NCBI GenBank assembly: GCA_003559575.1
Contig: PWKZ01000147.1
Coordinates: 35,471-99,470, forward strand
Reading direction: 5' to 3'
Source: Bradymonadales bacterium
GTDB lineage: Bacteria > Myxococcota_A > UBA9042 > PWKZ01
DNA: 64,000 bases
A program made the position numbers and the translations under genes. Positions 5,028 to 61,444 of the stretch are shown here, one piece after another. Positions within the stretch are counted from its first letter, which is position 1. Each line of letters opens with the position of its first letter. The notes beneath the pieces were generated by a model. The model was not told the origin of the DNA. It made no database searches and worked only from the letters and a program-made list of their open reading frames with translations.

Positions 5028-6614
5028 GTGGTCAGGCCATCTCGTCACAACGTCTGCTGCTTATGGGTGACGGCGCTCCTGCTGCTTCAAGCCGGCACCG
5101 GAGCGGGGCCGCTTTGGGCCTCCGACGTGTCCGACGCTCCCGAACGGCCGCAAGCAACGCTCCCCCGCGAGGAGTCGCCGCCGCGCTTCGAGCTCAACGT
5201 GGCGCCCGAGCAGATCGAGCTTGGCGCCGAGGTCCTCTATCGCGTGGTGTTCACGGCCCCCGAGGACTATCGTTTCTACTTCCCCTCGCCGCCGGCGCTT
5301 CAGCCGTTCGTGCTCGTCCCGGGCAGCCTGGTCACCCGCCGCGAGCCCGGAGAAGGCCCCGACCTGGGCCTCGTGAACACCGTAGTCGAGCTACGCCTCA
5401 GGAGCTACCGTCTCGGGGTGCGGTGGATCCCGGCCGTCGAGGTGGCCTTTTTGGGGCCCGAGGGGGAGACCGGCGTGGTGGATTTGCCGCGCCGGCGGGT
5501 CGAGGTAGTGGCCCGGGTGGCGGTGGACGATTTGCCGGCGCTGGCGAACCCGCCGCCGCCGCGCTCGGTCATCGCCACCAACTGGACGCTCGTCTGGGGG
5601 GCCGTCATCCTTGGCAGCGTGCTTGGCGCCGTGGTCCTGACTGTTCTGGCGCTATGGCTGTTTGGCGGCCGTCTGATGCGCCCGCCACCGCCGCCGCCGC
5701 CGCGCCCGCCCCACGAGACGGCGCTGATCAAGCTGGCCCAAATCGAGCGTGAGCGGCTGCCGGAGAGCGGCGCCTTGATGGACTACTATGTGCGGGTCAG
5801 CGAGGCGGTGCGTGAGTATCTCGGAGCGCGCTACCGCGTCGACGGCCTGATGATGACCACAGGCGAATTACTCCGGTCGCTCGAATCGGCCGATCTCAGA
5901 GGGGTCCCGCATAGCCGGGTGCGCGCTTTCTTGGAAGAGTGCGATCTGGTCAAGTTCGCCAACTTCGCACCGTCCCCCGAGGAGATCGAGTGGCTGCTCG
6001 CCACCGCCTATGGGTTGGTGCGCGACACGATGCAGGTCGTCACTCCCGAAGAGCAGGAGGCCGCGCGCCCGCAGGCGGCCGATCATCCCGCCCGCCCATC
6101 GGCGCGGGCCTTCGCGTGGTCGCTCGATCTGGCCTCGTTCGCATTGCCGGCCGGCGGCCTCCTGGTGCTCGGGCGGCTCATCGAGGCCGAATCGGTGTTT
6201 GTGGCCGCCGCCGTTCTGTTGGTGCTGCTTGGGCTGTTGCTGCGCGATTTGCCGTCGGCGGGGAGCCTCGGCAAGGCCATCACCGGCCTGCGCCTGGCCG
6301 GTTATCGGCCACCGGCCCAGGATCCCAAGACCCGGCGGCTGGTCCCCCAGGAGGGGAGGCTCCCCGGCGGCGGCGCCCGCGTCCGGCGTAACCTGGCACA
6401 GCTGGTCCCGTTCGTGGGTCAGGCGGTGGAGTTCGTGGTTTTGGCCCATGACCCCGACAGCCGACGACTGGGGGATCGCCTCGCCGGAACGGCGGTGCTG
6501 GATATTCGAGCGGTGGAGCGCAAGCGGGGGGGTGAGGTCGGCTTGTTGCTCGGCGCGATGGTGACGACTTTGTTGGCGTTGGCGGCGTTGGTAATGCCGC
6601 TCGTAGCGCTTTAG
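5028..6614 (+). CDS. Membrane protein: periplasmic domain + TM + poly-Pro linker + DUF4381-like region (KFANF) fused to C-terminal RDD-like domain
   Basis: Signal sequence LLLLQAGTGA; TM helix WTLVWGAVILGSVLGAVVLTVLALWLF followed by RPPPPPPPRPP. C-terminal hydrophobic segments with GKAITGLRLAG, resembling the RDD-family GKRxxGLRV motif. Located where DUF4381 sits in Bacteroides bat operons. Confidence 0.5.
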   Translation: MVRPSRHNVCCLWVTALLLLQAGTGAGPLWASDVSDAPERPQATLPREESPPRFELNVAPEQIELGAEVLYRVVFTAPEDYRFYFPSPPALQPFVLVPGSLVTRREPGEGPDLGLVNTVVELRLRSYRLGVRWIPAVEVAFLGPEGETGVVDLPRRRVEVVARVAVDDLPALANPPPPRSVIATNWTLVWGAVILGSVLGAVVLTVLALWLFGGRLMRPPPPPPPRPPHETALIKLAQIERERLPESGALMDYYVRVSEAVREYLGARYRVDGLMMTTGELLRSLESADLRGVPHSRVRAFLEECDLVKFANFAPSPEEIEWLLATAYGLVRDTMQVVTPEEQEAARPQAADHPARPSARAFAWSLDLASFALPAGGLLVLGRLIEAESVFVAAAVLLVLLGLLLRDLPSAGSLGKAITGLRLAGYRPPAQDPKTRRLVPQEGRLPGGGARVRRNLAQLVPFVGQAVEFVVLAHDPDSRRLGDRLAGTAVLDIRAVERKRGGEVGLLLGAMVTTLLALAALVMPLVAL

Positions 6615-6634
6615 GGGCGAAGGAGGCGAGGCGG

Positions 6635-7765
6635 ATGAGCTTCGCGAATCTGGAATTTTTGATTGTCGGCAGTGTCGCGACGCTTTTGGCCGCTTGGTAT
6701 GTCCTGCGGCGGCCGACCGCCGGCCTACGGGTGTCGGATGGATCCGCGGTTCGTCACGTCGCGCGCGCCGGCCGCGCGCGTTTCTGGCGTTTGCCGGATC
6801 TGTTGAGGCTGGCGGCGCTCGCGCTCCTCGTGGTCGCGCTGGCCCGTCCCCAGAGCGACTCGCTGACGGAGCTCACCGGCGAGGGCGCCGACATCATGAT
6901 CGCGCTCGACATGTCAGGTTCGATGAACGCCGTCGACATGAGCATGGAGGAGTTGGCTCTGTTGCAGGCGCGCGGGCAGGACCCGATGAATCGCTTTGAG
7001 GTGGCGCGCGATATCTTGAAGCAATTCATCGCCGGCCGCCGGGGGGATCGGATAGGCCTCATCATCTTCGGGCCGGAAGTGTATTTGAAGTTTCCGCTGA
7101 CACTGGACTACCGAATGATTGTGGCGCAGCTCGACTCGCTTGTGCTCGACAATGGGATTCGCACTTCCGATGGGGAGTGCACCAACCAATGCACCATCAG
7201 CGGCGCGGGGACGGCGCTCGGCGATGCCCTGGCGCGCGCCTATCGGCGGCTCAGGCACTCCGAGGCGGCGACCCGCGCGATTGTGCTCATCACGGACGGC
7301 GAGCGCGAGGGCGGTAAGCTCTGCCCGCGCATGGTCGCGACCTACATGGCCGACCAAGCGGATCAGGAGCAGATGCGGGTCTACACATTCCTGGTGGGGT
7401 CCCCCACCGCCATGACCACCCTCGTACCGCGCTACATCCGCCAAGTCGACCGGAGGCGCGGGGGGTATGATCTGGTGGTGGCCCGCGACGAGCGTGGGCG
7501 AGTGATCTATGAGCGCTCGCCGGAGCCGTTTGCCACCGATCCGCAGCTCATGCAAGAGATCGCGCGCCTGACCGGCGGGGAGTACTTCGAGGCCTTTGAT
7601 GAGCGCCAGTTTCGCGAGCAGTTCGAGGTGCTCGCCGGGACCGAGTTTCGCACCACCACTCGGACCCGTAAGCGGGATTTGTTCTTGCCGTGGCTGCTGG
7701 TGGGGCTTGGAGTGCTACTGCTCGAGTGGTGGCTGCGGGTCGGGCCGCTTCGAAAATTTCCGTGA
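6635..7765 (+). CDS. batA: BatA-like von Willebrand factor A domain membrane protein
   Basis: N-terminal TM pair, then VWA/MIDAS motif IMIALDMSGSM ... RIGLIIFG ... LITDGE. Same operon order as known bat clusters. Confidence 0.8.
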   Translation: MSFANLEFLIVGSVATLLAAWYVLRRPTAGLRVSDGSAVRHVARAGRARFWRLPDLLRLAALALLVVALARPQSDSLTELTGEGADIMIALDMSGSMNAVDMSMEELALLQARGQDPMNRFEVARDILKQFIAGRRGDRIGLIIFGPEVYLKFPLTLDYRMIVAQLDSLVLDNGIRTSDGECTNQCTISGAGTALGDALARAYRRLRHSEAATRAIVLITDGEREGGKLCPRMVATYMADQADQEQMRVYTFLVGSPTAMTTLVPRYIRQVDRRRGGYDLVVARDERGRVIYERSPEPFATDPQLMQEIARLTGGEYFEAFDERQFREQFEVLAGTEFRTTTRTRKRDLFLPWLLVGLGVLLLEWWLRVGPLRKFP

Positions 7766-7782
7766 GGGCGGGATGAAGGACG

Positions 7783-10700
7783 ATGAACTGGTCTGAACTC
7801 ACTTGGCAAAATGGTCACTTGTGGTGGGTCGTGCCTGTCGGGGTGGGGGTCGTCGCGCTCGGCTTCCTGCTCGTTTTTCTCTGGCGACAGAGGATGCTCG
7901 AACGGATCGCCGACCCGGCCCTCCGCGAACGTTTGGTGGAGACCTTGAGCCGCCCCCGGCAGGTGCTCAAGGCGGTCATCATGACCGTCGCCGTGGCGTT
8001 GCTGCTGCTCGCGGCGCTCCGGCCCCAGTACGGGGTGCGCGAGACCGAGGTGAGAAACGTCGGGATCGACATCGCCGTGTTGCTCGACGCCAGCCAGAGT
8101 ATGCTGGTGCGGGATGTGGTGCCCGACAGGTTCGTGGCCGCCCGGCAGGAGATAAGCCGGGTGCTCGAGGGCTTGAGTGGTGGCCGGGTGGCGCTCATTC
8201 CATTTTATTTCATCCCCTTCGTGCAGTCTCCGCTCACCTCCGACTTTGACGCGTTGCAGGTCTACTTGCGTGATCTGAGGCTCGATGACATCGCCGAACC
8301 CGAGATGCGCGGGACAAGTATCGGCCGCGCGCTGATGGCCGCCGTAGGGTTGTTGGCCCAGGATCGGGAGTTGCTCTCCGAGGCCGGGGCGGGCGTCGTC
8401 CCGGATTTGGACGAGGACCACGACGTGAGCGCGATGGACGGCAGCCGCTACAAGGCGATTCTGCTATTCACCGACGGCGAGGAGCACGAGGATCTCCCCG
8501 AGGAAATCTACACGGTGGCGGAGTCCGCCGGTATCCGGATCTTCTCCGTCGGGGTCGGGACACGGGCCGGTCACGCGGTGCCCATCGTGCAAGAGGACGG
8601 CGAGGTGACCGGAGTGCTCAAAGGCGAGGATGGCCACCCAATCTTCTCGGCGCTCAACGAGGAGCTGCTGGGCGGGCTGGCCGAGCGCACCGGCGGCGCC
8701 TATTTCAACTTCTCGGGCCGCTCGGTGGCCGACGAGCTTTTGGCCGAGATCGAGAAGCTCGAAAAGAAGGAGTTCGAAGCTCAGACCCGCGATCTTGGAG
8801 AGGATCGCTACCAATTCCTGTTGCTTCCGGCGCTGATACTGCTGATGGTCGAGGGGCTCATGTCTGATCGCTTGCGGCGCAGGAGAGCCACCGATGACAA
8901 GCGGCGGCAGGGAAAGCGCGGGAGACGCCGCCTTGGCGCGCTGGTTATGGCGCTGGTGCTGCTTGCCGGTCCCCAGGCCGTCGCCTGGGATCTCTTCAAG
9001 ACCCGGCAGAGCGACGTCGAGGCCGGGAACGCTCTGCTTCGGTCCGGGAGCCCACGCGAGGCGCTCGAGGCTTATGAGCGGGCGCGGGAGGTCTTGCCCG
9101 AACAGGCCGAGTTGCACTACGCCATTGGGGTCGCGCGGCACGAACTCGGAGAATATGACATGGCGGTGCGGGCACTTGAGCGGGCGCTCGAGCGGCTCCC
9201 GGATCTCGGTGTCGCCGAGGAGACGCGCGAGCTAAGGTTCGCCGTGCTGTTTGCCCTCGGGACGACCTATGCCGCATGGGGCGAACGAGCCGAGGCGCGG
9301 GCTCTAGGGCGGGCTGCCCCCGAAGAAGAGGAGGGACCGGAGCCGCGGCAGGACGCCCGGACCAAGGCCATCGAGCGGTTCGAGCGAGCGGTTCATTTCC
9401 TCGAGCGCGCCCTGAGATTCGAGCCGGGTCACGAGGGGGCGCTCCTCAACCTCGAGCTTGCCCTGCTGCGGGTGGATCCGCCATGTCATCTTCGCAACGA
9501 TGAATACGCCCCCAACGACACGTTCGACTCCGCGGCGGCGCTCGAGGTGGAAGATCTGCAAGAGGAGCAAATGTTTCCGCTCGTGCTGTGTCCCGGGGAG
9601 GACGACTGGTTCACGTTCGAGACCGAGCCCGGGGACCGGATTTTCGCCTCCGTCAAGACCGATAACCGCGCCGCCGAGCTCCGCGTCGCGCTCTATGCGC
9701 CGGACGGCGTCAGGGTGCGCCCTCCTGCCGGCAGTGAGAGAACGATCTCGGAGCTGAGCTATCAGGAGGGGGCGCTCGCGGGGCCGGTGAGGCTGCACGT
9801 CTTTGATCCGACCGAGGAGGAGAGCGACTATCGCTTGAAACTCCGAGTCCTGCCGGCCTGCGAGCGGCTGGACGATTCGTTCGAGCCCAACGACAGCTTC
9901 GAGGAGGCGCGGCTGGTGACCGACGAAGATCGGGAGAGGCTCGCGGCGCTCAGGTTGTGCCCCGGGAACGACGACTGGTTCAAGATCGATGTGCCCGACG
10001 AGTGGAGCTTGATGGTCATCGGTGAGTTCGACATCAAGCAGGGCCTCCCCGAGCTTGCGATCTTCGACGAGCAGCAAAATGAACTCATGCGGCGCTCGTT
10101 TTCGAGTGAGGAAGCGCAGGTTGATGACAGCGCGCCTTTGATGTTGAGCTTGCTCGAACCTCCTCCCGGTCGCTACCGCTTGAAGGTGACCGGCACCCTG
10201 GACGTCGAGGCGGCCTATGGGTTGACTCTCCAGGTGGTCCCCCCTTGTCCGGAGGGGGACGATCACATGGAGCCCAACGACGAGTTCGGGGAGGCCAAGC
10301 CGTTTCCCGAGGGGGAGCCGATGTTGCTCCGCCGGTGCCCCGACAACGACGACTGGTTCGAGGTGATGGCGAGCGGCGACGAGCGACGCGTGGTGACCGC
10401 CCTGTTCGATCACGAGAGCGGCGATTTGGCGCTCGAGCTCTACGATTCCAAGCAGCAACTCGTGGGCGAGAGCGATCAGAGCAGCGCTCAAATGGGCGGT
10501 GAGGCGCTCGTGTTACCCGAGGTGCCCGAGGAGGATGAGGTGCCGTATTATGTGCGAGTCACCTCGCACGTGAACGAGAGCAACTTCTATCTGCTCGAAT
10601 TGCGCGCTCCGGACGCCGATCCGGACGCGCCTGATGACGAGCGGGACGAACAAGACGAACAGGACGAGCGGGACGAACAGGACCGGCAAGACGAACGGGA

Positions 10701-14569: not shown

Positions 14570-15976
14570 CTAGAGTTTCAGGAAACGACCCATCTTCATC
14601 CCGAGCTTCATCATCCCGCGGCGTGTCAGGAGGTGCCGCGCGACATAGCCCAGGCGGCGAGGGTGGCCGTAAAATGCCGCCAGCGCTCCGAGCTGAATCG
14701 CGCGCAGTGTGCCCGCTCCGATGAGACTCGCTCGATCACTGAAGTTGCGCGCGTTGTAATAGTCGATGCCGGTGTTGGCGTCGTTGCAGAGGGCGAAGCG
14801 GTTGTCGGCGCTCATTTGAGTGGCGATGTGTGTTCCGGGGAGGACGGACGTCAGGGAGAACGTCGCCTCCGTCAGATCCAGCCGCGTGGCGAGCTTGACG
14901 GTCGCCAACATCTCTCTGAGATCCTCGGTCGGTGAGCCGAGCATGAAAAACCCCAGCGCATGGGCGCCGCGATGTCGCAGGTGCGCGAGCAGCGACTCGA
15001 GCCGGTCCAGATCGACTCGTTTGTGGAGCACTTCCTCCCGAATTCGACGGCTCCCGGCCTCGATCCCCAGATGGATGCTTCGCATTCCGCTCGCGACCAT
15101 TGCGTCGACGAGCTCATGGTCGAGGCAATCGACACGCGAGTTGCAGCCCCATAGAATCGGCCGCCGCATTTGCAGCAGCGCTTCGCATAGCTCCAAGAGC
15201 CAGCGCCGCCGCGTCGTCAGGGTGTCGTCGTGAAAGAAAATCCCGCGGACACCGTAGCGCTGTTGGAGAGCTTCCACCTCGGCGACGATGCTCGCGGGGC
15301 TGCGGCGTCTTGGGCCGCGCCCGAAGAGCGAGTCCAGTGTCGGTTGGCAGTAGGCACATTGTTCGGCGCAGCCACGGGACGCGACTATATTGGTCCCCAC
15401 GGTGGCGACGTCCAGGGTGTCCAAATAAGGCCAGCGGTGGAGGTAGCGCTCCATTGGGAGGAGATCCCAGGCGGGGAATGGGAGCGCGTCGAGGTCCGGC
15501 GGCCGGTACGGCGCGCACGATCTCTTCGGGGGGCCGCCGGCGCTCTCGCGCCACACGACGTTCGGCACGTCCCCAAAGGGCGCGCGCGCGATGGCGCGGT
15601 CGACCACGTCGGCGATGATGGGCTCGCCCTCCCCAAGGACTATGGCGTCGAAGGCGGGCAGCAGTGTTTCGGCGGCCACCGTGGCGTGGGGGCCTCCGGC
15701 CACCACCGAGGCGCCGCCCTCGCGCGCCGCTTCCGCCACCCGTGACGCGACTAACGGCATCAGCGAGTCCACATAGACTCCGACGACATCGCCGCGGGCG
15801 GCCCGTACGGCTTGAAGCAGCTTCTTTTCACCGCCGAGGAAGGTGCCGTCCACGATCCGGATGTCGAGCGCGGGCCGCGCCTTGCGCAGCGCCGCGGCGA
15901 GGTAGGCGACGCCGAGCGGCGGATCGCCGGTGCGATAGGTTGAGCGGGGGAAAACCAATACGACTCGATGGGCCAT
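14570..15976 (-). CDS. B12-binding domain radical SAM enzyme (class B rSAM)
   Basis: Start MAHRVVLVFP (ATG on minus strand at 15974-15976). The ORF track's 724-aa call includes about 256 codons of non-coding-looking leader. Cobalamin-binding-type N-terminal domain, then CxxxCxxC cluster motif ASRGCAEQCAYC and a TIM-barrel-like core. Confidence 0.8.
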   Translation of the reverse strand: MAHRVVLVFPRSTYRTGDPPLGVAYLAAALRKARPALDIRIVDGTFLGGEKKLLQAVRAARGDVVGVYVDSLMPLVASRVAEAAREGGASVVAGGPHATVAAETLLPAFDAIVLGEGEPIIADVVDRAIARAPFGDVPNVVWRESAGGPPKRSCAPYRPPDLDALPFPAWDLLPMERYLHRWPYLDTLDVATVGTNIVASRGCAEQCAYCQPTLDSLFGRGPRRRSPASIVAEVEALQQRYGVRGIFFHDDTLTTRRRWLLELCEALLQMRRPILWGCNSRVDCLDHELVDAMVASGMRSIHLGIEAGSRRIREEVLHKRVDLDRLESLLAHLRHRGAHALGFFMLGSPTEDLREMLATVKLATRLDLTEATFSLTSVLPGTHIATQMSADNRFALCNDANTGIDYYNARNFSDRASLIGAGTLRAIQLGALAAFYGHPRRLGYVARHLLTRRGMMKLGMKMGRFLKL

Positions 15977-16086
15977 TGAGCCTCTCTGGACGGCGGCCTT
16001 AAGGGGGTACCGCGACCCCGACGTGCGCGCCTGAGCGCGAAGGTAGCAAACGGGCCAAGTGCGCACAATGCCTTGATCATATAATC

Positions 16087-16237
16087 CATAATCGTCGGTT
16101 CGTTCTGAGGAGACCCGCCAAGTGGAGGCGCGTGCATGTGCACGGAAACAAGCCGTTCTCAGGCGCAGTCCAACGCAGAGCCTACGTCGAGCACTAATTA
16201 TTCTGCAGGTGACGCCGCAGATGGGCCGACGATTATG
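16087..16237. repeat. Copy 1 of a ~150-175 nt repeated intergenic element with perfect 12-bp terminal inverted repeats (CATAATCGTCGG...CCGACGATTATG); candidate structured sRNA or MITE
   Basis: Second copy at 61178..61352 in the same orientation. Shared blocks: TTCGTTCTGAGGA, GTGGAGGCGCGTGCATGTGCA(C/A)GGAAACAAG, CTACGTCGAGCACTAATT, GCAGGTGACGCCGCAGATG. The central block is variable. Contains the hairpin CGTGC-ATGT-GCACG. Lies in the divergent promoter region of the two radical SAM genes. Confidence 0.6.
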
Positions 16238-16373
16238 ACCTTGAGCCGCTGGGCGGGGGGGTGGTAGGGTGAAAACGGGTGGTTGCCCCTGGTGTGGTGC
16301 GTTTCGGGCTCGAGCCGCTCTCGTGCCGGGGGAGCGCTTTTTTGCGAGCTTTCCCGGTGGTGGAAGCGCCGTT

Positions 16374-17861
16374 ATGGCTCCAGTCAAAGGCTCCGGTCTT
16401 CGAGTCCTCTTTGTCAACGGACTGCTGGGCGGTGATTTTAGTGCGCTGGACATCGGCGTCACCGTGCTCGCCTCATGGCTGAACCAGAAAACCCGCCATC
16501 GGGCGGCCATCGCCGATCTCGTCTTCCATTCCAGGCATTGGCAGCGGCATCTGCATCGCGAGATTGAACGCAAGCGACCCGACGTGATCGCGCTCTCGTG
16601 CAACACGATGTACATGAAGTACGTCCGGCGTATCGTCGCCGAGGTGCGGCGACGGCATACGCTCCCGATCGTTTTGGGGGGGCACCACGCGAGCATCGAG
16701 CCGGCCGAGGTTTTTGCGCTCCCCGGTGTCGACGCGGTCGTCATCGGCGACGGAGAGCTGCCGCTCCAAGGCTACCTGGATCGGTTGAGTGAAGGCGGCA
16801 ACTTCGAGGGCGTCCCCGGGCTGTGGGTCCGTGAGCGCGGCCCCCTTGGGCGCGAGGTGCGCAATGAAGGCGGCGCCTTCCTCGAGGACATCGATCAGCT
16901 CCCCTATCTCGAGTGGGATCTCTGGGACGACCTCGATCGCTATTTTTATTTTTTGGGGATGATTTACGCGCAGGGCAGCCGCGGGTGCCCCTACCGCTGC
17001 ACGTTCTGCGACGCTCAGGGCTACGCGCGGGCGCTGCGGGGCACCGGCAGCTACTTCCGTCTGCGCGATCCCGAGGCGTTCGTCGCCGAACTCGAGCATT
17101 ACTATCACCGCTATCACCATAGGGGCGCCCGGCTGTTCCAGCTCTTCGATCCCGTCTTCACGATGGACGACGACTGGCTCACTCGTTTCTCCGCCGAGTA
17201 CCGCCGGCGCGGGCTCCATGAGCGGATGCGCTACTCGGCCTTCTCGCGGATCGACCATCTCTCCGAGGAGAAAGTCGCGCTGCTTGCCCGCTCCGGTTGC
17301 GCGCTATTGCGGGTCGGTATCGAGGCGGGCGACGATCACATTCGCATGGAGGTCTACAAAAAGAAGATCGGCAGCGCGACGATTCGGCGGATCTTTGCCG
17401 CTGCCAAACGTCAGGGGCTGGACTTCACAGCGTTTTTTATTTTCGGAGGGCCACAGGAGACGCACACGTCATTCTTCAAGACCACGCGGCTGGCGTGGGA
17501 GCTGGACGCCGCGCGCTCGGGGTTCTTCGTCTACAAGCCGTTCACCGCCGAAGGGCGCGCCCAGATCGAGGCCGCCGGCGGCGGTATCGACTCGGTGCGC
17601 TACGCGGCCGCCGACAATATCGCCTGGGGTGGCGCGACCTCTGGGAAAGGCTGGGGGCCCCGGTCTCTCGAAGCCTGGCAGCTCGCGGCCTACGGGCTGA
17701 CTTTTGGGCGCCGGTGGGTGCGCATGATTCGCCGCCGTGGGCTGCCCGCGTACACGACGGCGCTGGCGCGTTACATGGCGCGCGGCCTCCGGCTGGGCTT
17801 GGACTGGCGCTATATGGCCATGTACTTCCACATCTACGAGGGCGACAACGTCGATCAGTGA
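16374..17861 (+). CDS. B12-binding domain radical SAM enzyme (class B rSAM), paralogue of 14570..15976
   Basis: ATG at 16374 with GGTGGAAG upstream; MAPVKGSGLRVLFVNG begins the B12-binding domain; CxxxCxxC motif GSRGCPYRCTFCD. The ORF track's N-terminal extension from 16269 is probably not translated. Confidence 0.8.
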   Translation: MAPVKGSGLRVLFVNGLLGGDFSALDIGVTVLASWLNQKTRHRAAIADLVFHSRHWQRHLHREIERKRPDVIALSCNTMYMKYVRRIVAEVRRRHTLPIVLGGHHASIEPAEVFALPGVDAVVIGDGELPLQGYLDRLSEGGNFEGVPGLWVRERGPLGREVRNEGGAFLEDIDQLPYLEWDLWDDLDRYFYFLGMIYAQGSRGCPYRCTFCDAQGYARALRGTGSYFRLRDPEAFVAELEHYYHRYHHRGARLFQLFDPVFTMDDDWLTRFSAEYRRRGLHERMRYSAFSRIDHLSEEKVALLARSGCALLRVGIEAGDDHIRMEVYKKKIGSATIRRIFAAAKRQGLDFTAFFIFGGPQETHTSFFKTTRLAWELDAARSGFFVYKPFTAEGRAQIEAAGGGIDSVRYAAADNIAWGGATSGKGWGPRSLEAWQLAAYGLTFGRRWVRMIRRRGLPAYTTALARYMARGLRLGLDWRYMAMYFHIYEGDNVDQ

Positions 17862-55256: not shown

Positions 55257-57635
55257 TCAGAGGGTCGTCGAGAACCGACCGACCGAAAATGAGGGGCCGA
55301 AGAGAAAGGCCCATGGGCTCTCGCCATCCCCCCTGCGAGTGGGGGAGTACTCGGCCCAGGCGTGAATGTTGAACGAGGTCTGGAGGACGGTGTCCGGGTT
55401 CAACACCGGGATACTGAAGCCAATCCCGCCAATGAACGACAGGTGCGCGGTTTCACTCAAGTCGGTGCCCAGAATCCCAAGCTCCAGGCCGATTGGAAAC
55501 TCGTTGCCCTCACGATAAAGGAGCGCGAGGCGGCTCGTCGCGCCGGCCGAGAGCGGTATCGAGCCTCGGCCACCGCTTCGACCGAAGCGAAACAGGCCGG
55601 TGGGCAGCGCGGTGCCGGCGCTGATCCTGACGGGCCGATCGCCCAGCACGATGCGATAGCGGGCTTCCGGGCCGATGCTATGACGCGGTGAGAGATCGTA
55701 GTGTCCCCCCGAGTACTCGTGCCCCACCGCCACCAGCAGTCGCGAGAACTCCCGTTGATCGCCGGCGCTCAGAGCGACCCGGACGGTTCCCTCGCCGTGG
55801 CTCACAAGCAGCAGCTCCTCCTTACCGCCGGTGGTGATGCGAATCTGCTGCTCCCCGGCCTCCGGTGGGATGGCGCTCCGATCGATGGTCACGCTGCAGC
55901 TGTCCCGATCACGGTAGGGGACGTTCGTGATCCGTCCGGGAGGCACCGTGAACTCCTCTGCTCGCCGACGGCACATGACCTCTACGACGCGCGGCTCGGA
56001 TTCGCTGACGAGCGGTACCGGGACGTTCATGGCGCGCAGCCGGAAGCGCCCCTCCGTGTCGATTCGAGCCAACACCTCGGGCCTTCCCAGCGCGTTTTCG
56101 AGCGCTTGCGGACGATACGCGAGCCGCAGCGGGATACTGCCGAACATGGCGTCGGTGCCATGCACGAACACATCCGGTCCTTCGCGCCGGACGCGATATA
56201 ACCCTCGCCGGCTCTCGACCCGAATATCCTCCCCCCAACGGTCCTCCTCGAACGCCAACACCACGCGCGCCTCGCGGTTGGTGGGGATGAAATCCACCAG
56301 CCCCTGATTGGGGATCTCGAGCCCGGCTATCACCGGCAGGTAGCCTTCCTCCACCGGGATTGAGAAGGCGCCGAGGCTGGTGCGCTGCAGATCGCGCCGC
56401 ACGAGCGTCAACTCGAGTTTTCGCAAGCCGGCCGGCACCTTCTCGAAGATCACCTCGAACACCCGCCAGGCCCGATCAGCGCTGCTCACTTCGCCGCGCA
56501 CCCACGCATAGGTCGGTGGCCGGGTCTCGATCAGGAGCTCGCGCGGCTCGGTGGCGAAACAGTCGCGTGCGACCACAATCAAATAACGGTGGTTGGCGAT
56601 TCCCGCCAACAGCGGTACTCCGGCGAGCGGCTGCATCGCGCAGCGCACCAGAGGGATTTCTATTTGCTCACGTGTTTGGCTGCGCCCATCGATGACGCGC
56701 TCGGCACCAGGGACGAGATCGATGAGCATTGTCACCGCCAGGGCGGACGGATCGATCCCGAAAATCTCCACCCCGTCGTCCACCAACACACAGCTTGCTC
56801 TCCGGCAACGCACGTCTTTGACTGCCTCCGGGAGCACCAGTGGTACGGTGGTGCGCTCGGCGGCGACATTGAGCTGGCGGGTCGCCACGAGGGGGTGGAG
56901 AAATGAGAGTACGACCTCGGGGATGAATAACCCCTCGCGCCCTATCGCGTGCCCGGCGGCGTCTCGGAGCATCGGCAGCGGCGCGCCCACCTCGAGCGCC
57001 ACCGCGGAGGGCCACAGCATTAGCTCGGCGCGCCCGCCCCGCGCCTTGGTCCGCATGAACTCGCGATCCACCGGCAGCGCGCAGCTCCGCTCCCCCAAAC
57101 AGGGCGCCACGCCCTGGACTCGCCCATCCAGGATCGCCACGAGCGCCAGTTCGGCCAGGTCGTCGCCGCGCACCTCGGCCACCCGCGCCTCGGCCTGCAA
57201 AACGGCGCTCACCGAGCGCTCTCGCCACGGCTCGGGCGCACCCACATACAGCCGCAGCATTTCAGGGGTGTCACAGCTCTCCCGTGTGTCGGCGAGCGCA
57301 ATCTCCAGCCAGGAGGCAGCCCACTCGGCGGGAGAGAGGACCCCGTCCTCCAGCATCGTCGGCTTATCCTCCGGCGCACTCCGCAGACCACAGAGCACAC
57401 CGTCAAACATGACGCGGGAGGGTCGTCCGGCGATTACCACCGCCGGGATGTGCCCCTCCGGCGCCTCGCGCGCCAGTGCGAGCGCCGGCAGCGTGATCGT
57501 GCCGTCTGCGGCGTCCTCCGGCGGCGCAGCCGAAACGCGCAGCGAGGACACCAAGAGGAGCAGGAACGTCAGCCTCGAAAAACCGTGGGGTCGCCCCCAC
57601 CGACAGTGTCGACCTGCAATCACGAGCGCCTCCAC
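55257..57635 (-). CDS. Large secreted hypothetical protein (792 aa)
   Basis: Signal peptide (LTFLLLLVSSLRVSAAPP); no recognised domains. The C-terminal ~150 aa have alternating beta-strand-like pattern. The opposite-strand 375-aa ORF (56593..57720) is Ser/Arg-rich and treated as a shadow. Confidence 0.5.
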   Translation of the reverse strand: MEALVIAGRHCRWGRPHGFSRLTFLLLLVSSLRVSAAPPEDAADGTITLPALALAREAPEGHIPAVVIAGRPSRVMFDGVLCGLRSAPEDKPTMLEDGVLSPAEWAASWLEIALADTRESCDTPEMLRLYVGAPEPWRERSVSAVLQAEARVAEVRGDDLAELALVAILDGRVQGVAPCLGERSCALPVDREFMRTKARGGRAELMLWPSAVALEVGAPLPMLRDAAGHAIGREGLFIPEVVLSFLHPLVATRQLNVAAERTTVPLVLPEAVKDVRCRRASCVLVDDGVEIFGIDPSALAVTMLIDLVPGAERVIDGRSQTREQIEIPLVRCAMQPLAGVPLLAGIANHRYLIVVARDCFATEPRELLIETRPPTYAWVRGEVSSADRAWRVFEVIFEKVPAGLRKLELTLVRRDLQRTSLGAFSIPVEEGYLPVIAGLEIPNQGLVDFIPTNREARVVLAFEEDRWGEDIRVESRRGLYRVRREGPDVFVHGTDAMFGSIPLRLAYRPQALENALGRPEVLARIDTEGRFRLRAMNVPVPLVSESEPRVVEVMCRRRAEEFTVPPGRITNVPYRDRDSCSVTIDRSAIPPEAGEQQIRITTGGKEELLLVSHGEGTVRVALSAGDQREFSRLLVAVGHEYSGGHYDLSPRHSIGPEARYRIVLGDRPVRISAGTALPTGLFRFGRSGGRGSIPLSAGATSRLALLYREGNEFPIGLELGILGTDLSETAHLSFIGGIGFSIPVLNPDTVLQTSFNIHAWAEYSPTRRGDGESPWAFLFGPSFSVGRFSTTL

Positions 57636-57866
57636 GGGGCCGGTTTCTATCCGGCCCGCCCGTTCTTGGGATCAACTTCTATCTCGCGCGCCGGGCGCTG
57701 GCAAGATCACACTAGATTAACTACAATGCCGCTGAGAGGCGAGAGCACGGGCAGAATTACACCCTGACTCCTCGGCTGCCGCCGGTCGGCATCGAAAGCG
57801 GTGGGCCTCGCCCGCGACATGGCAAGAAGAGACGGCGTTTCGGACGCGAGAAGAATGAGAGACGAG

Positions 57867-58379
57867 ATGAAACGACACATTTTGATGCTCGCCGTGGTCG
57901 CCGCCATGCTGTTGTCCGCCACCGTAGTTTCCGCCGGTGAGCTCGCGAGGCCGGGGCGCTTCGGCCTCGGGGGCGCCATGGGCTGGCCGGGAATCGGTTT
58001 GTCCACCAACACCTTCGTGAGCCAGGGGGTCTCCATCCAGGCGGCCGCCTACGGCTTCTGGTCCTTCAACGGATTTGCCGTCGATGTCGATTGCCTTTTC
58101 TGGTTGCATACCATAGTGAGGCACAGAGCGTTCGACTTCACTTGGTACGCCGGTCCCGGGGCAGCCTTCGCCTACTGGGGCGGCGTCGGCCTGGGGCGTT
58201 ATGGCGGAACCCGCGGGGGTATGCTGGGGGGCGCCATCAAGGGCTCCGCCGGGTTGGCGTTACAGTTCAAGGACGCCCCGGTGGATCTCACCTGGCAGCT
58301 CTCTCCGGGGGTCTTCGTGAGCCAATATGGGGCCGGCTTGTGGCTGACGAGTATGCTGGCCTCGCGCTTCTACTTCTGA
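57867..58379 (+). CDS. Small outer-membrane beta-barrel protein
   Basis: Start MKRHILMLAVVAAMLLSATVVSAG (signal peptide). Alternating Gly/aromatic amphipathic strands. C-terminal ...SRFYF with terminal Phe, typical of OMP beta-barrel insertion signal. Confidence 0.55.
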   Translation: MKRHILMLAVVAAMLLSATVVSAGELARPGRFGLGGAMGWPGIGLSTNTFVSQGVSIQAAAYGFWSFNGFAVDVDCLFWLHTIVRHRAFDFTWYAGPGAAFAYWGGVGLGRYGGTRGGMLGGAIKGSAGLALQFKDAPVDLTWQLSPGVFVSQYGAGLWLTSMLASRFYF

Positions 58380-58421: not shown

Positions 58422-61148
58422 ATGGGGGACGAGATGGAGGAGCGGGGCCTCCCGCCCGGCGTGACGGTAGTCGAGTTCATCAACACTCCCGCGCCCGACT
58501 CTCAGAGCGCCCCCCTGGTAGCCTCGCTCGCCTCGTTGGGCGCGCTCGAGCGCAACGTCATCGTCCTTTGCGGCGCGCCCGCAAATCCGGAGGGGTCCCA
58601 TTTTGTCGCCGGGGATGAGCGTCTCCTTTTCCCCGGCCCTGTGTTGTTCTCAGGTCTCCCGCCGCGGGGGTTTCTGGGGCGGCTGGAGCGCGCCGGGGCG
58701 ACACCGGCTGCCTGGGGCGAGTTTGCGCCCCCCGGAGCGACTACACTCCAAACACTCGACCAGGTGCTCGCCTGGTGGGCTCCCCTGTCTCACGGTGTTC
58801 CCGGCGCCGACCGGCATCCGATCCAATCACGCGCACCGGCGCCACCCCTGGTCATCGCCGCCACCGGGAGAGCGCAGGCCGCAGCGGCGGTGCCTCTCGC
58901 GCTTCGTCGAATCGCGGCGCTCGGCGCCGCCGGCTATGCGATCCGGTCGACCCCGCTCCGGCTGAGCTTGATGGGCGCCACCAGCGCCACGGGGCTCATG
59001 GATCTGGCCCGCCGGCTTGCGTGCGAGGGGCCGGTCGAGCTTGTCTTTGATGCCGACCTCGATCTCCTGGTCGAATCCGGCCCGACTCTGCTGAGCGCCA
59101 TCGAGTTTCTCGCCGCCGCCGGCCACCGCCTTGAACTTGGCCGGCTCTTTCATCGCCCTCTCACCGTCTCCCCCGCGAGCCACCGACCGGGCGTCGCCGG
59201 CGACGCTCAAGCGCACGTCTTATTGGCGGCGCTCAGGCTCGTCTCCGCCCTCGCCGAAGAGTACAGCGAGACCTTTGGCTGGCGTGCCCACGGACAACTT
59301 TGGCCCGATGCGACTCACGGGCCCAAGGAGCGCGACGAGGCCGATCTCGCCCTGGCGCTCCTGCGGCTCATGGGGATGGAGTCCTTGTCGTCCATGGGCG
59401 GCCCTCAAACGGCGACCGAAGGGGAGACTGTCTCATACCGTGTCGCGGCCGAGCGTTTCGAGGCGCGAGGCTACGAGCCCGGCCAGGAGCGGGCGCGGCA
59501 CACTCCGCCCACCGATCCCAGGATCGCCCGGGAGGTTAGCGACCCCGTTCATCCCAGCGCCGATTGGCTGGGTTTCATCGCCGACGTCAAACCCGTCTGC
59601 CGCCTGGAGGCCTTGCCGCCGGAGCGCGCCGAGGCGCTGGCGACGCAAATCACCACTCGATGGCCGGAGGCGTTCGTCACCAGGGGCCGGGTGAGTGCCC
59701 ATCTGGTCGATCTGGTCGTCGCCCGCCAACCGGAGTTGGCCGAACAGCTCGCCACGATGAAGCCGATGCGCGGGACCGGTGTCGCGGTCGACGAGCGCGC
59801 GCGCATCGAACGAACCGGGCGGTTGCTGGGCTATCCGCCATGCTGTGCGGCGCGGTTCGCCGCCAACGCAGCGGGAGGGCGCGAGACCGACAACGAGTGG
59901 TTGCACCTCGAGAACCGGGTGTGGGAGCCGGGCTCGGTCCCTCTCGCGCTAAGGCCTCTTGTTGGGCCGCTCTCCTTCGTGCCCTGCTCAGCGTGTTGCC
60001 CGCGCGCGCTCGAGCAGGCGGCGACACTCGCAGCGAAAGGGATTCCCACCGTCGCGCCGGACGCGGCTTGGCCGCTGCTGATCATGCTCGACCGGCCGGG
60101 CTGGTTCGCGCAGCTCGAACCACTCTCGCCGGTGGGGGAGCGATTTCACTTCCGTGTGGCGCGGGTGCAAGGGGATGATCAGCGGCTCGCGAAGTTGGCC
60201 GAGGCCGACCGGCTGGAGGTTCTGCCCGGGCGGATCCGCGGACTGCGGGGGGCCGAAGTGGTGGCCGGTTTCACGCTCGAGGCTTTCTTGTGGTGGCATC
60301 AGCGACCGTTCCACGTCGCCTTTTGGCGGCATGTGCTCTGGGCCCGCGCGTGCCGCCCGGCCAAACGAACGCTCGAGGAGGCCGCGCCGGTCGAGCGGAC
60401 CGCGCCGCGGGTGCGACCCCGTATCCTGCCGCTGGACCAAGCGCTCGGGCTACTCCACTCCGGCATCAACACCGGCGCGCTGAGCTGCGCGCGGGTGGCG
60501 CCGACGGCCGACGGCAAGCTTCTGTTGATCGATCTCGCCCTCGCCGGATCACCGGCGGGGTCGTTTTGCTGGTTGCCGCGGGGCGCGCGTCGAGGGGAGC
60601 CGCGGCTTTTCGGTGACGCGTTGATTCCGTCCGGCCCCAAGGCAGCCTGTCTCCAGCGCGACGAGACCTCGCGCCTCGCCGGTCTTCTGGCGGCAGAGCT
60701 TGGCCCGTTGTGGCGTCGTAGCCTGGGTCGGCGCCTCGAGCGCAGCAACCGCGAGCTTGTCTCCGTCGCACCGCGCGAGGGGCTCGGCTCGCTGCTGCGC
60801 GACCGACTGGTGCAAGGGATGCGGTGTTGGGGGCGCTATGTTCTCGAGCTGTTCGAGGAGTGGCTCGGACCCGACGGACTGCCCCGCGTTCGTTTCGTGC
60901 TGGCCGGCAACCGCCATCGAATCGAGCTGCGTTTCGGTCCCCACCGCGAGGCGCCGGCAAGTCGGACGCTGTTGACCACTACACTCGGAGCGCTGTGGCT
61001 GGCACACGACGAAAGACCGCAAGAGCTTCTCGCGCGAGGAGCCGAGCGCCCTGAGCTGGCCGTGGCGTTCGAGTTGGCCAGAGCGGTACCACGCACCGCG
61101 CGCTTTGAGCATTCAGTTGTCGGCCAAAAGCGGCCGACAATCAGCTAA
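58422..61148 (+). CDS. Large orphan protein (908 aa) with paired-cysteine motifs
   Basis: Long uninterrupted ORF with GC3-rich codon usage. Contains GYPPCCAARF and VPCSACCP (two vicinal Cys pairs ~70 aa apart). No recognised catalytic motif. Confidence 0.5.
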   Translation: MGDEMEERGLPPGVTVVEFINTPAPDSQSAPLVASLASLGALERNVIVLCGAPANPEGSHFVAGDERLLFPGPVLFSGLPPRGFLGRLERAGATPAAWGEFAPPGATTLQTLDQVLAWWAPLSHGVPGADRHPIQSRAPAPPLVIAATGRAQAAAAVPLALRRIAALGAAGYAIRSTPLRLSLMGATSATGLMDLARRLACEGPVELVFDADLDLLVESGPTLLSAIEFLAAAGHRLELGRLFHRPLTVSPASHRPGVAGDAQAHVLLAALRLVSALAEEYSETFGWRAHGQLWPDATHGPKERDEADLALALLRLMGMESLSSMGGPQTATEGETVSYRVAAERFEARGYEPGQERARHTPPTDPRIAREVSDPVHPSADWLGFIADVKPVCRLEALPPERAEALATQITTRWPEAFVTRGRVSAHLVDLVVARQPELAEQLATMKPMRGTGVAVDERARIERTGRLLGYPPCCAARFAANAAGGRETDNEWLHLENRVWEPGSVPLALRPLVGPLSFVPCSACCPRALEQAATLAAKGIPTVAPDAAWPLLIMLDRPGWFAQLEPLSPVGERFHFRVARVQGDDQRLAKLAEADRLEVLPGRIRGLRGAEVVAGFTLEAFLWWHQRPFHVAFWRHVLWARACRPAKRTLEEAAPVERTAPRVRPRILPLDQALGLLHSGINTGALSCARVAPTADGKLLLIDLALAGSPAGSFCWLPRGARRGEPRLFGDALIPSGPKAACLQRDETSRLAGLLAAELGPLWRRSLGRRLERSNRELVSVAPREGLGSLLRDRLVQGMRCWGRYVLELFEEWLGPDGLPRVRFVLAGNRHRIELRFGPHREAPASRTLLTTTLGALWLAHDERPQELLARGAERPELAVAFELARAVPRTARFEHSVVGQKRPTIS

Positions 61149-61177: not shown

Positions 61178-61352
61178 CCATAATCGTCGGTTCGTTCTGA
61201 GGAACGAGCGTGTGGAGGCGCGTGCATGTGCAAGGAAACAAGACGAATTAGGCGGAGGCGTAGCAGCGCTACGTCGAGCACTAATTCGGTGCAGGTGACG
61301 CCGCAGATGTGCGCGGATCCGCGCGCGAATCCCAGGATGGGCCGACGATTAT
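61178..61352. repeat. Copy 2 of the terminal-inverted-repeat element (see 16087..16237), here upstream of glgB
   Basis: Same 12-bp TIRs (CATAATCGTCGG / CCGACGATTATG) and shared internal blocks. Relative to copy 1 it carries a 29-nt insertion containing the palindrome GCGCGGATCCGCGC and a divergent central segment. Confidence 0.6.
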
Positions 61353-61444
61353 GGACGTTGACAATGTTGGCGTGGGGCTTGTAGACCGAGAACTACTTGG
61401 GATCGAGTCGCCGAATCCCGTTCGTGGAGGGGCCGGGGGTGCGG

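Follow-up and report, generated by a model that had tools for sequence, protein, structure and literature searches.

The DUF483 domain (Pfam PF04467) is widespread in bacteria, archaea, and phages. In the literature we found a single mention of it, in a radical S-adenosylmethionine (SAM) module of a Thermus phage, where InterPro is noted to show fusions of DUF483 with methyltransferase or radical SAM domains (PMC11437467); neither a function nor a solved structure was found. A second described system relevant here comprises loci of Elusimicrobia and Myxococcales in which a novel nitrogenase paralog is encoded with an extensive radical SAM suite, for which a role in tetrapyrrole modification has been proposed (Meheust et al. 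2020, bioRxiv 10.1101/765248); these Group VI nitrogenase-like (NFL) proteins still have no characterized member according to a 2026 review (Chem Rev, PMC13474568). We report here on a 908-amino-acid (aa) protein encoded in a 64,000-nucleotide (nt) stretch of a Bradymonadales bacterium genome (assembly GCA_003559575.1, contig PWKZ01000147.1, positions 35,471 to 99,470), which was analyzed as a whole and is called the window below. The protein has lost radical SAM chemistry yet is still maintained, and its DUF483 core is the conserved part. Whereas the DUF483 domain and its fusions to radical SAM domains are already on record, the ~930-aa protein family to which we assign the window protein, and the link of that family to Group VI clusters, were not found described in the papers searched.

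An earlier note on this DNA had called the 908-aa protein an orphan with no recognizable catalytic motif and had recommended a remote-homology search. When 1.84 billion cluster representatives were scanned exhaustively with HMMER, 186 proteins were recovered at an E value of ≤1e-3, 124 at ≤1e-10, and 5 at ≤1e-30, and a Pfam search matched DUF483 over both of the cysteine motifs discussed below, with a score over the gathering threshold of 25 bits; hence, the protein is no orphan and can be assigned to a family. A word-indexed homology search had returned the query alone, a result that is misleading given the outcome of the exhaustive scan. The relatives are mostly 900 to 1,000 aa long (typically ~930 aa) and come mainly from Myxococcota, with some from metagenome-assembled genomes (MAGs) of Elusimicrobia; the closest of them, P0002, is 38% identical (E = 2.7e-92 in the same scan). 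What they have in common is the region of aa ~380 to 650 of the query, which is the best-scoring part in nearly all of them and is collinear with aa ~540 to 830 of the relatives (best E value, 1e-92). Collinearity is also seen, though weaker, between aa ~155 to 323 of the query and aa ~220 to 390 of the relatives, and a C-terminal extension (aa ~763 to 908) aligns with P0002 only. The lineage of the window itself amounts to one cluster of three members at 90% identity. Searches of NCBIfam, PHROGs, PADLOC, and the sequences of the Protein Data Bank (PDB) gave no match for the 908-aa protein or for the 792-aa and 170-aa proteins encoded next to it. By sequence comparison, the protein is placed as a divergent member of an uncharacterized radical-SAM-like/DUF483 fusion family found mainly in Myxococcota.

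At the heart of this family lies a conserved core of ~270 residues (Table 1), of which the DUF483 domain defined in Pfam covers only the helical first third; the fusion family adds a beta-rich subdomain that ends in an AFxWWH...FW motif. The signature GYPxCC plus PCSxxC is common to the window protein and to archaeal (Methanobacteria, Bathyarchaeia) and bacterial members of DUF483. Among nine relatives scanned, seven matched DUF483 at E ≤ 1e-3 and four of these exceeded the 25-bit cutoff, and all eight members of alignment A4 matched as well. The earlier note had drawn attention to two vicinal-cysteine motifs, GYPPCC and PCSACC, which are both present; they start 51 rather than ~70 residues apart, with 47 residues from C475 to C522, and the vicinal pair of the second motif is not a family trait, as C525 is not conserved. 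Of 144 aligned relatives, 134 have all four of the remaining cysteines (C474, C475, C522, and C526), and GYPxCC is found in nearly every relative, which puts the cysteine motifs far beyond chance. In an alignment of 98 sequences, the near-invariant positions are G466, L469, G470, Y471, P472, C474, C475, R499, P512, P521, C522, C526, P551, A621, W624, and W635. Over the 36 conserved columns of the core, the window protein retains 83% of the residues, against a median of 93% in the relatives.

An AlphaFold2 (AF2) model built with the family alignment (mean predicted local distance difference test [pLDDT] score of 72.6 and predicted template modeling score of 0.66; a single-sequence model, with a pLDDT of 38, was not usable) exceeds a pLDDT of 90 over aa 380 to 650. 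It places two of the conserved cysteines at the N terminus of a helix (residues 473 to 484) and the other two just before another (residues 527 to 538). Because these four cysteines are invariant and the domain is constantly associated with Fe-S radical SAM enzymes (see below), they most likely bind a predicted metal center, either Zn or an Fe-S cluster. The suggestion of a metal or redox center in the earlier note is thus plausible and is strengthened for these four residues, with the fifth, C525, falling away. A comparable four-cysteine site with a vicinal pair is the CxxC...CC arrangement of arginyl-tRNA-protein transferase, for which binding of either Zn or an Fe-S cluster has been reported. 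Foldseek searches with the model recovered nothing from the PDB at E ≤ 1e-3 and nothing from BFVD, and a profile of the core found no relative among PDB sequences; the core appears to be structurally uncharacterized. One might suppose that the core is itself an enzyme, its metal or cysteines forming a catalytic center, in which case the window protein would be fully active and its N-domain merely structural. We think this rather unlikely: the core has no significant structural or sequence match to characterized enzymes, a similarity to NleE is weak and comes with no report of the query region aligned, and the core is almost always fused or adjacent to radical SAM enzymes, which points to an accessory role.

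The usual order of domains in the family was established with an alignment of 47 full-length members (A1). An N-terminal alpha/beta subdomain is followed by a radical-SAM-like domain resembling that of OxsB, a linker, the ~270-residue core, and a small C-terminal alpha/beta domain. The relatives carry a cysteine-bearing N-terminal segment of the form ECxY ... [C]xRxxGCxFC and then the motifs GxExFSxxELxRxNKG, GGLSxILxTPWT, GKLLTSRLRL, and DTARRNxYxxExPWRF. Out of 100 representatives with an N-domain, 96 have the cysteine triad, which is spaced as CX5CX2C in about half. The Pfam Radical_SAM model matches the N-domain of two relatives weakly (E = 8.5e-4 and 7.9e-3), and the A1 profile matches OxsB, a radical SAM enzyme that depends on cobalamin and takes part in oxetanocin A biosynthesis, with an E value of 1.3e-6 (PDB code 5UL2), the cluster motif and a GxExxS..L.R..KG motif being aligned. 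Because of the weak Radical_SAM matches and the OxsB profile match, we read the relatives, on sequence grounds, as divergent radical-SAM-like enzymes fused to a DUF483-containing core. The likeness to OxsB is a property of the family profile, that is, of the relatives; the window protein itself has no match among PDB sequences and no cluster cysteines, and OxsB has no DUF483 domain. As for the N-terminal subdomain, the B12-binding model PF02310 matched neither the window protein nor the nine relatives scanned, so that its likeness to B12-binding domains is one of position and fold only. Some members depart from the usual layout: two DUF483 cores occur in one polypeptide in P0003 (1,923 aa), P0008 (699 aa), and P0083 (1,172 aa), and extra canonical B12-radical SAM domains are carried by P0019, P0039, and P0133.

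The window protein shares the domain order and the core with this family but departs from it in the N-terminal part, where both the N terminus and the linker are shorter. At the columns of the cysteine triad it has gaps or residues other than cysteine (IQSRA in A1; R150 and A153 in alignment A2), and among the 100 representatives it is the only full-length one without all three; the other three that lack the triad have N-terminal regions of just 155 to 158 residues, compared with the usual ~300 to 460. When columns with ≥80% conservation among the 46 remaining sequences of A1 are counted as conserved, it retains 27% of 88 N-domain columns, whereas the relatives retain at least 76% (median, 94%) and P0002 keeps the triad together with 94% of these positions. 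The remaining N-domain motifs are substituted or deleted, ~100 linker residues are gone, and neither a three-cysteine radical SAM motif (CX3CX2C or a variant) nor a match to the Pfam model PF04055 was found in the window protein. The AF2 model nonetheless keeps beta/alpha repeats over aa 150 to 330, with the pLDDT falling below 50 over aa 93 to 148. Because the triad and most of the family motifs have been lost, the window protein is predicted to be unable to bind a radical SAM [4Fe-4S] cluster or to carry out radical SAM chemistry. We considered a frameshift or a switch of reading frame as the cause of the missing triad and rejected it, as GCxFC is encoded in no other frame and the G+C content at third codon positions (GC3) is uniform along the gene. 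An internal duplication as the origin of the C-terminal extension found no sequence support either.

The gene is an uninterrupted open reading frame of coding character, as the earlier note had said on the strength of its length and GC3 bias. Its GC3 lies between 0.69 and 0.85 from end to end, its codon-position G+C contents (0.75/0.55/0.79) are comparable to those of the nearby glgB and V-ATPase genes, and the encoded protein consists of 14.5% Ala, 13.5% Leu, 10.6% Arg, and 8.7% Pro, with 13 cysteines. No in-frame stop interrupts the first 380 codons, where position-specific composition would predict ~4 and the remaining five frames have 4 to 10. Two further strain-level assemblies (L001 and L002) have the gene at the same length of 908 codons with zero indels, differing from the window copy by five synonymous and two conservative changes (L651I and A874S) in total. 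These observations bear on the possibility that the protein is an evolutionary relic, namely, a former radical SAM-DUF483 enzyme whose pathway was lost and which is now decaying without a current function, its frame being open by chance or only recently inactivated. Such decay would fit the massive loss of conserved N-domain residues and the deletion in the linker, the lack of adjacent nitrogenase-like or radical SAM partner genes, the rarity of the lineage, and the ease with which long open frames arise in DNA of 70% G+C (other frames here reach 386 aa). It sits poorly, however, with a frame that is intact in three strain-level assemblies, with the 5:2 ratio of synonymous to conservative nonsynonymous changes among them, with a GC3 that is high over the whole gene and an N-terminal part free of stops, and with a core that has kept most of its conserved positions, including all four cysteines; we consider a relic improbable. 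"DUF483 domain protein, degenerate radical-SAM-like N-domain" would be a better annotation for the gene. Its start is ambiguous, with M1 (ATG at 58422) and M5 (ATG at 58434) each preceded by a purine-rich stretch, and the family alignment begins near residue 14. An internal start that would yield a protein consisting of the core alone was considered and is unsupported, since none of the internal Met codons has a Shine-Dalgarno-like sequence upstream.

We then turn to the genomic contexts of the relatives. With a trimmed eight-sequence alignment of the core, 80 loci were recovered from 185,579 species-representative genomes; 20 of them have full-core matches and belong to Myxococcota ("Myxococcales," Polyangiaceae, and "Deltaproteobacteria" MAGs) and Elusimicrobia; the shorter, DUF483-only matches come from Bathyarchaeia, Methanobacteria, Woesearchaeota, Binatia, Parachlamydiales, Bacillota, and other groups. 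Of the 20 full-core loci, 7 have nitrogenase-like genes beside the fusion gene, as judged by tblastn (L009, L013, L014, L015, L019, L021, and L022), in 5 of them within 5 kb. Gene calling, clustering, and Pfam searches in two of these, L013 (QMME01000047.1) and L019 (CAZQHM010000040.1), placed the fusion gene beside genes for a NifH-type protein (Fer4_NifH; 2e-80) and two NifD/K-type (Oxidored_nitro) proteins, along with several canonical and B12-binding radical SAM proteins. Such cluster contents match those of the published Group VI nitrogenase-like (NflHDK) and radical SAM loci (bioRxiv 10.1101/765248), and Group VI clusters may repeatedly include the radical-SAM-like/DUF483 fusion. The clusters with relatives also contain genes of the Ala_racemase_N type. 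Six of the 20 full-core loci have canonical radical SAM genes at a distance of up to 5 kb; for DUF483-only genes, radical SAM genes are found within this distance in 18 of 60 loci. A stand-alone core of 444 aa (P0006) begins 5 nt after a B12-binding/Radical_SAM gene, and in L015 the N-domain and the core are split between a pair of genes. In L004, L006/7, L016, L017, and L027, the relative stands alone in an unrelated context. The window copy, unlike many of its relatives, is not beside Nfl or radical SAM genes: tblastn found no NflH/D/K-like gene in the 64 kb, and no second DUF483 gene was found there. On a Methanothermobacter MAG (L048, 9135-14496), a 181-aa stand-alone DUF483 gene begins 3 nt after a gene that, judged by eye, resembles reductases of the RibD C-terminal type, and is followed by one for a 1,307-aa protein that, judged in the same way, is CobN/Mg-chelatase-type-like.

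We favor, as the probable explanation of the whole, that the window protein is a cytoplasmic, radical-SAM-inactive member of the family that would work through its putative metal-binding DUF483 core and whose neighbors are incidental. The radical-SAM-like domain has degenerated, losing the triad and most motifs while keeping its beta/alpha fold pattern and open reading frame; in the preserved core, C474, C475, C522, and C526 would hold a metal center, either Zn or an Fe-S cluster; and via this core the protein may assist radical SAM enzymes whose genes lie elsewhere, as a partner that is noncatalytic or at least performs no radical SAM chemistry, binding a substrate or cofactor or serving as a scaffold. 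A role in trans of this kind has a parallel in those genomes that encode the core on its own, beside a B12-radical SAM gene. Pseudoenzymes, i.e., catalytically dead paralogs kept for binding or scaffolding, may offer another: as in these, the fold and the open reading frame are kept, the catalytic ligands are lost, and a second domain is well conserved. That the four-cysteine core was retained after the attached domain had lost its cluster ligands argues for a role of the core in its own right. More tentatively, and as a possibility well short of an even chance, the DUF483 core in general could be a self-contained module with a metal site (possibly Fe-S) that assists radical SAM enzymes in trans, e.g., as a holder or carrier of a substrate or cofactor intermediate; in many relatives this would take place within Group VI pathways, and the window protein would be a separation-of-function variant. 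If so, this protein would provide a handle for the first assignment of a function to DUF483.

Several points weigh against the explanation that we favor. It is from sequence and context that we infer the metal site and the role as partner or scaffold. The evidence for purifying selection is thin, consisting of seven substitutions and a P value of ~0.02 for the absence of stops. Two B12-binding radical SAM genes are present in the window, but they lie 40 kb from the 908-aa gene with nothing linking them to it, and a partnership with them would be circumstantial only. Our view is limited to the window, and an intact paralog or a nitrogenase-like cluster elsewhere in the genome is possible.

Table 1. 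Features of the 908-aa protein gene and its surroundings, in window coordinates
Feature	Coordinates	Strand	Basis or remark
908-aa protein gene	58422..61148	+	Uninterrupted 908-codon open reading frame; coding-type GC3; relatives in exhaustive HMMER scan; collinear with ~930-aa relatives
N-terminal alpha/beta subdomain (aa 1-92)	58422..58697	+	At position of relatives' flavodoxin/B12-binding-like subdomain
Pro/Ala-rich low-confidence segment (aa 93-148)	58698..58865	+	In place of relatives' Cys-triad stretch (ECxY ... GCxFC); pLDDT <50; triad columns gapped or non-Cys
Degenerate radical-SAM-like (putative partial TIM barrel) domain (aa ~150-330)	58869..59411	+	
Core conserved in the family (aa ~380-650): helical DUF483 part bearing four Cys, and beta-rich subdomain ending AFxWWH...FW	59559..60371	+	Alignment; pLDDT >90
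Pfam DUF483 (PF04467) match (aa 445-532)	59754..60017	+	E = 6.8e-6; 26.5 bits
GYPPCC (aa 470-475)	59829..59846	+	Motif and alignment; C474 and C475 invariant
PCSACC (aa 521-526)	59982..59999	+	Motif and alignment; conserved pattern PCSxxC, C522 and C526 invariant
C-terminal region (aa 665-908): family alpha/beta domain (aa ~670-760) and extension (aa ~763-908)	60414..61148	+	Alignment; AF2 pLDDT 60-87
792-aa protein gene (called as 788 aa)	55257..57635	-	Signal-peptide-like N terminus; divergent neighbor
Promoter-like site	57698-57727		Upstream of 170-aa protein gene
170-aa predicted small outer-membrane protein gene	57867..58379	+	Signal-peptide-like N terminus; ends RFYF (C-terminal Phe)
Palindromic repeat, copy next to glgB	61178-61354		Same orientation as other copy
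Palindromic repeat, second copy	16086-16238		Between divergent B12-radical SAM genes
B12-binding radical SAM gene, canonical	14570-16744	-	Divergent pair with 16269-17861; pair motifs CAEQCAYC and CPYRCTFC
B12-binding radical SAM gene, canonical	16269-17861	+	Divergent pair with 14570-16744
dnaA	19981-21384		Adjoins B12-radical SAM pair

The immediate surroundings of the gene are as the earlier note had described them, with the 170-aa predicted outer-membrane protein and the divergent 792-aa protein gene on one side and the whole block flanked by glgB and V-ATPase genes. The gene for the outer-membrane protein ends 43 nt before the 908-aa gene on the same strand and is preceded by a promoter-like site, and the two are probably cotranscribed. 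The note had taken the three genes together as a block with no assignable function, and it had suggested examining their co-occurrence in other genomes. We found none. At 87 loci that carry relatives of the 908-aa protein and lie outside the contigs of the protein itself, no homolog of the outer-membrane protein, of the 792-aa protein, or of GlgB was present. Homologs of the outer-membrane protein elsewhere (43 to 73% identity) adjoin a tetratricopeptide repeat protein or a GH172 protein, those of the 792-aa protein (47 to 55% identity) sit among sensor kinases or beside ResB/CcsA cytochrome c assembly genes, and the loci recovered for these homologs have one or the other of the two but not both, and no DUF483 gene. 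Because the homologs thus occupy unrelated contexts without each other, the block is a local juxtaposition; the adjacency of the outer-membrane protein, the 792-aa protein, and glgB to the 908-aa gene is local happenstance, they are not conserved partners, and the three-gene module is to be dropped.

The same result bears on a model in which the three proteins would form one functional, envelope-associated module and the Cys-Cys sites would serve it as a redox or metal center. Physical adjacency, the common orientation and short spacing of two of the genes behind a promoter-like site, and the fact that none of the three is functionally annotated are in keeping with it. The lack of co-occurrence in any examined genome largely refutes it, however, and the module is unlikely because the 908-aa protein has, by its sequence, neither a signal peptide nor a transmembrane segment and because its relatives look to be radical SAM enzymes of the cytoplasmic type; we regard it as very improbable.

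The 792-aa protein, which like the others had no match in NCBIfam, PHROGs, PADLOC, or PDB sequences and none in Pfam, is a conserved family in its own right, with full-length homologs in several metagenomes. With glgB nearby, a link of the DUF483 protein to alpha-glucan metabolism was also considered and rejected, as an alpha-amylase neighbor is found in L006/L007 only and no other locus has a homolog of alpha-amylase or GlgB. In these two metagenome contigs from the Joint Genome Institute (5442-9913), the gene for P0007 starts 15 nt after an alpha-amylase-family gene, probably by coincidence.

The two canonical B12-binding radical SAM genes of the window form a divergent pair adjoining dnaA. 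The 5′ parts of their long open reading frames overlap, and translation of each probably begins downstream of the start as called. Elsewhere, genes of this type occur fused to family members: one of the two shares 28% identity (E = 2e-20) with the additional radical SAM domain of P0039. The earlier note had also mentioned a terminal-inverted-repeat (TIR) element bordering the block, which is probably the same as a palindromic repeat that starts 30 nt past the stop codon of the 908-aa gene, shortly before glgB. The repeat is present in the window in two copies of the same orientation (153 to 177 nt), and its other copy sits between the divergent B12-radical SAM genes. A search of Rfam with the repeat gave no family match. 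Its termini, CCATAATCGTCGG / CCGACGATTATGG, have 4 matches versus 0.06 expected, and the interior is conserved. As RNA, it would form one long, almost perfect hairpin (-105 kcal/mol; z = -10.7), and it has the look of a miniature inverted-repeat transposable element or a repetitive extragenic palindrome (MITE/REP-like).

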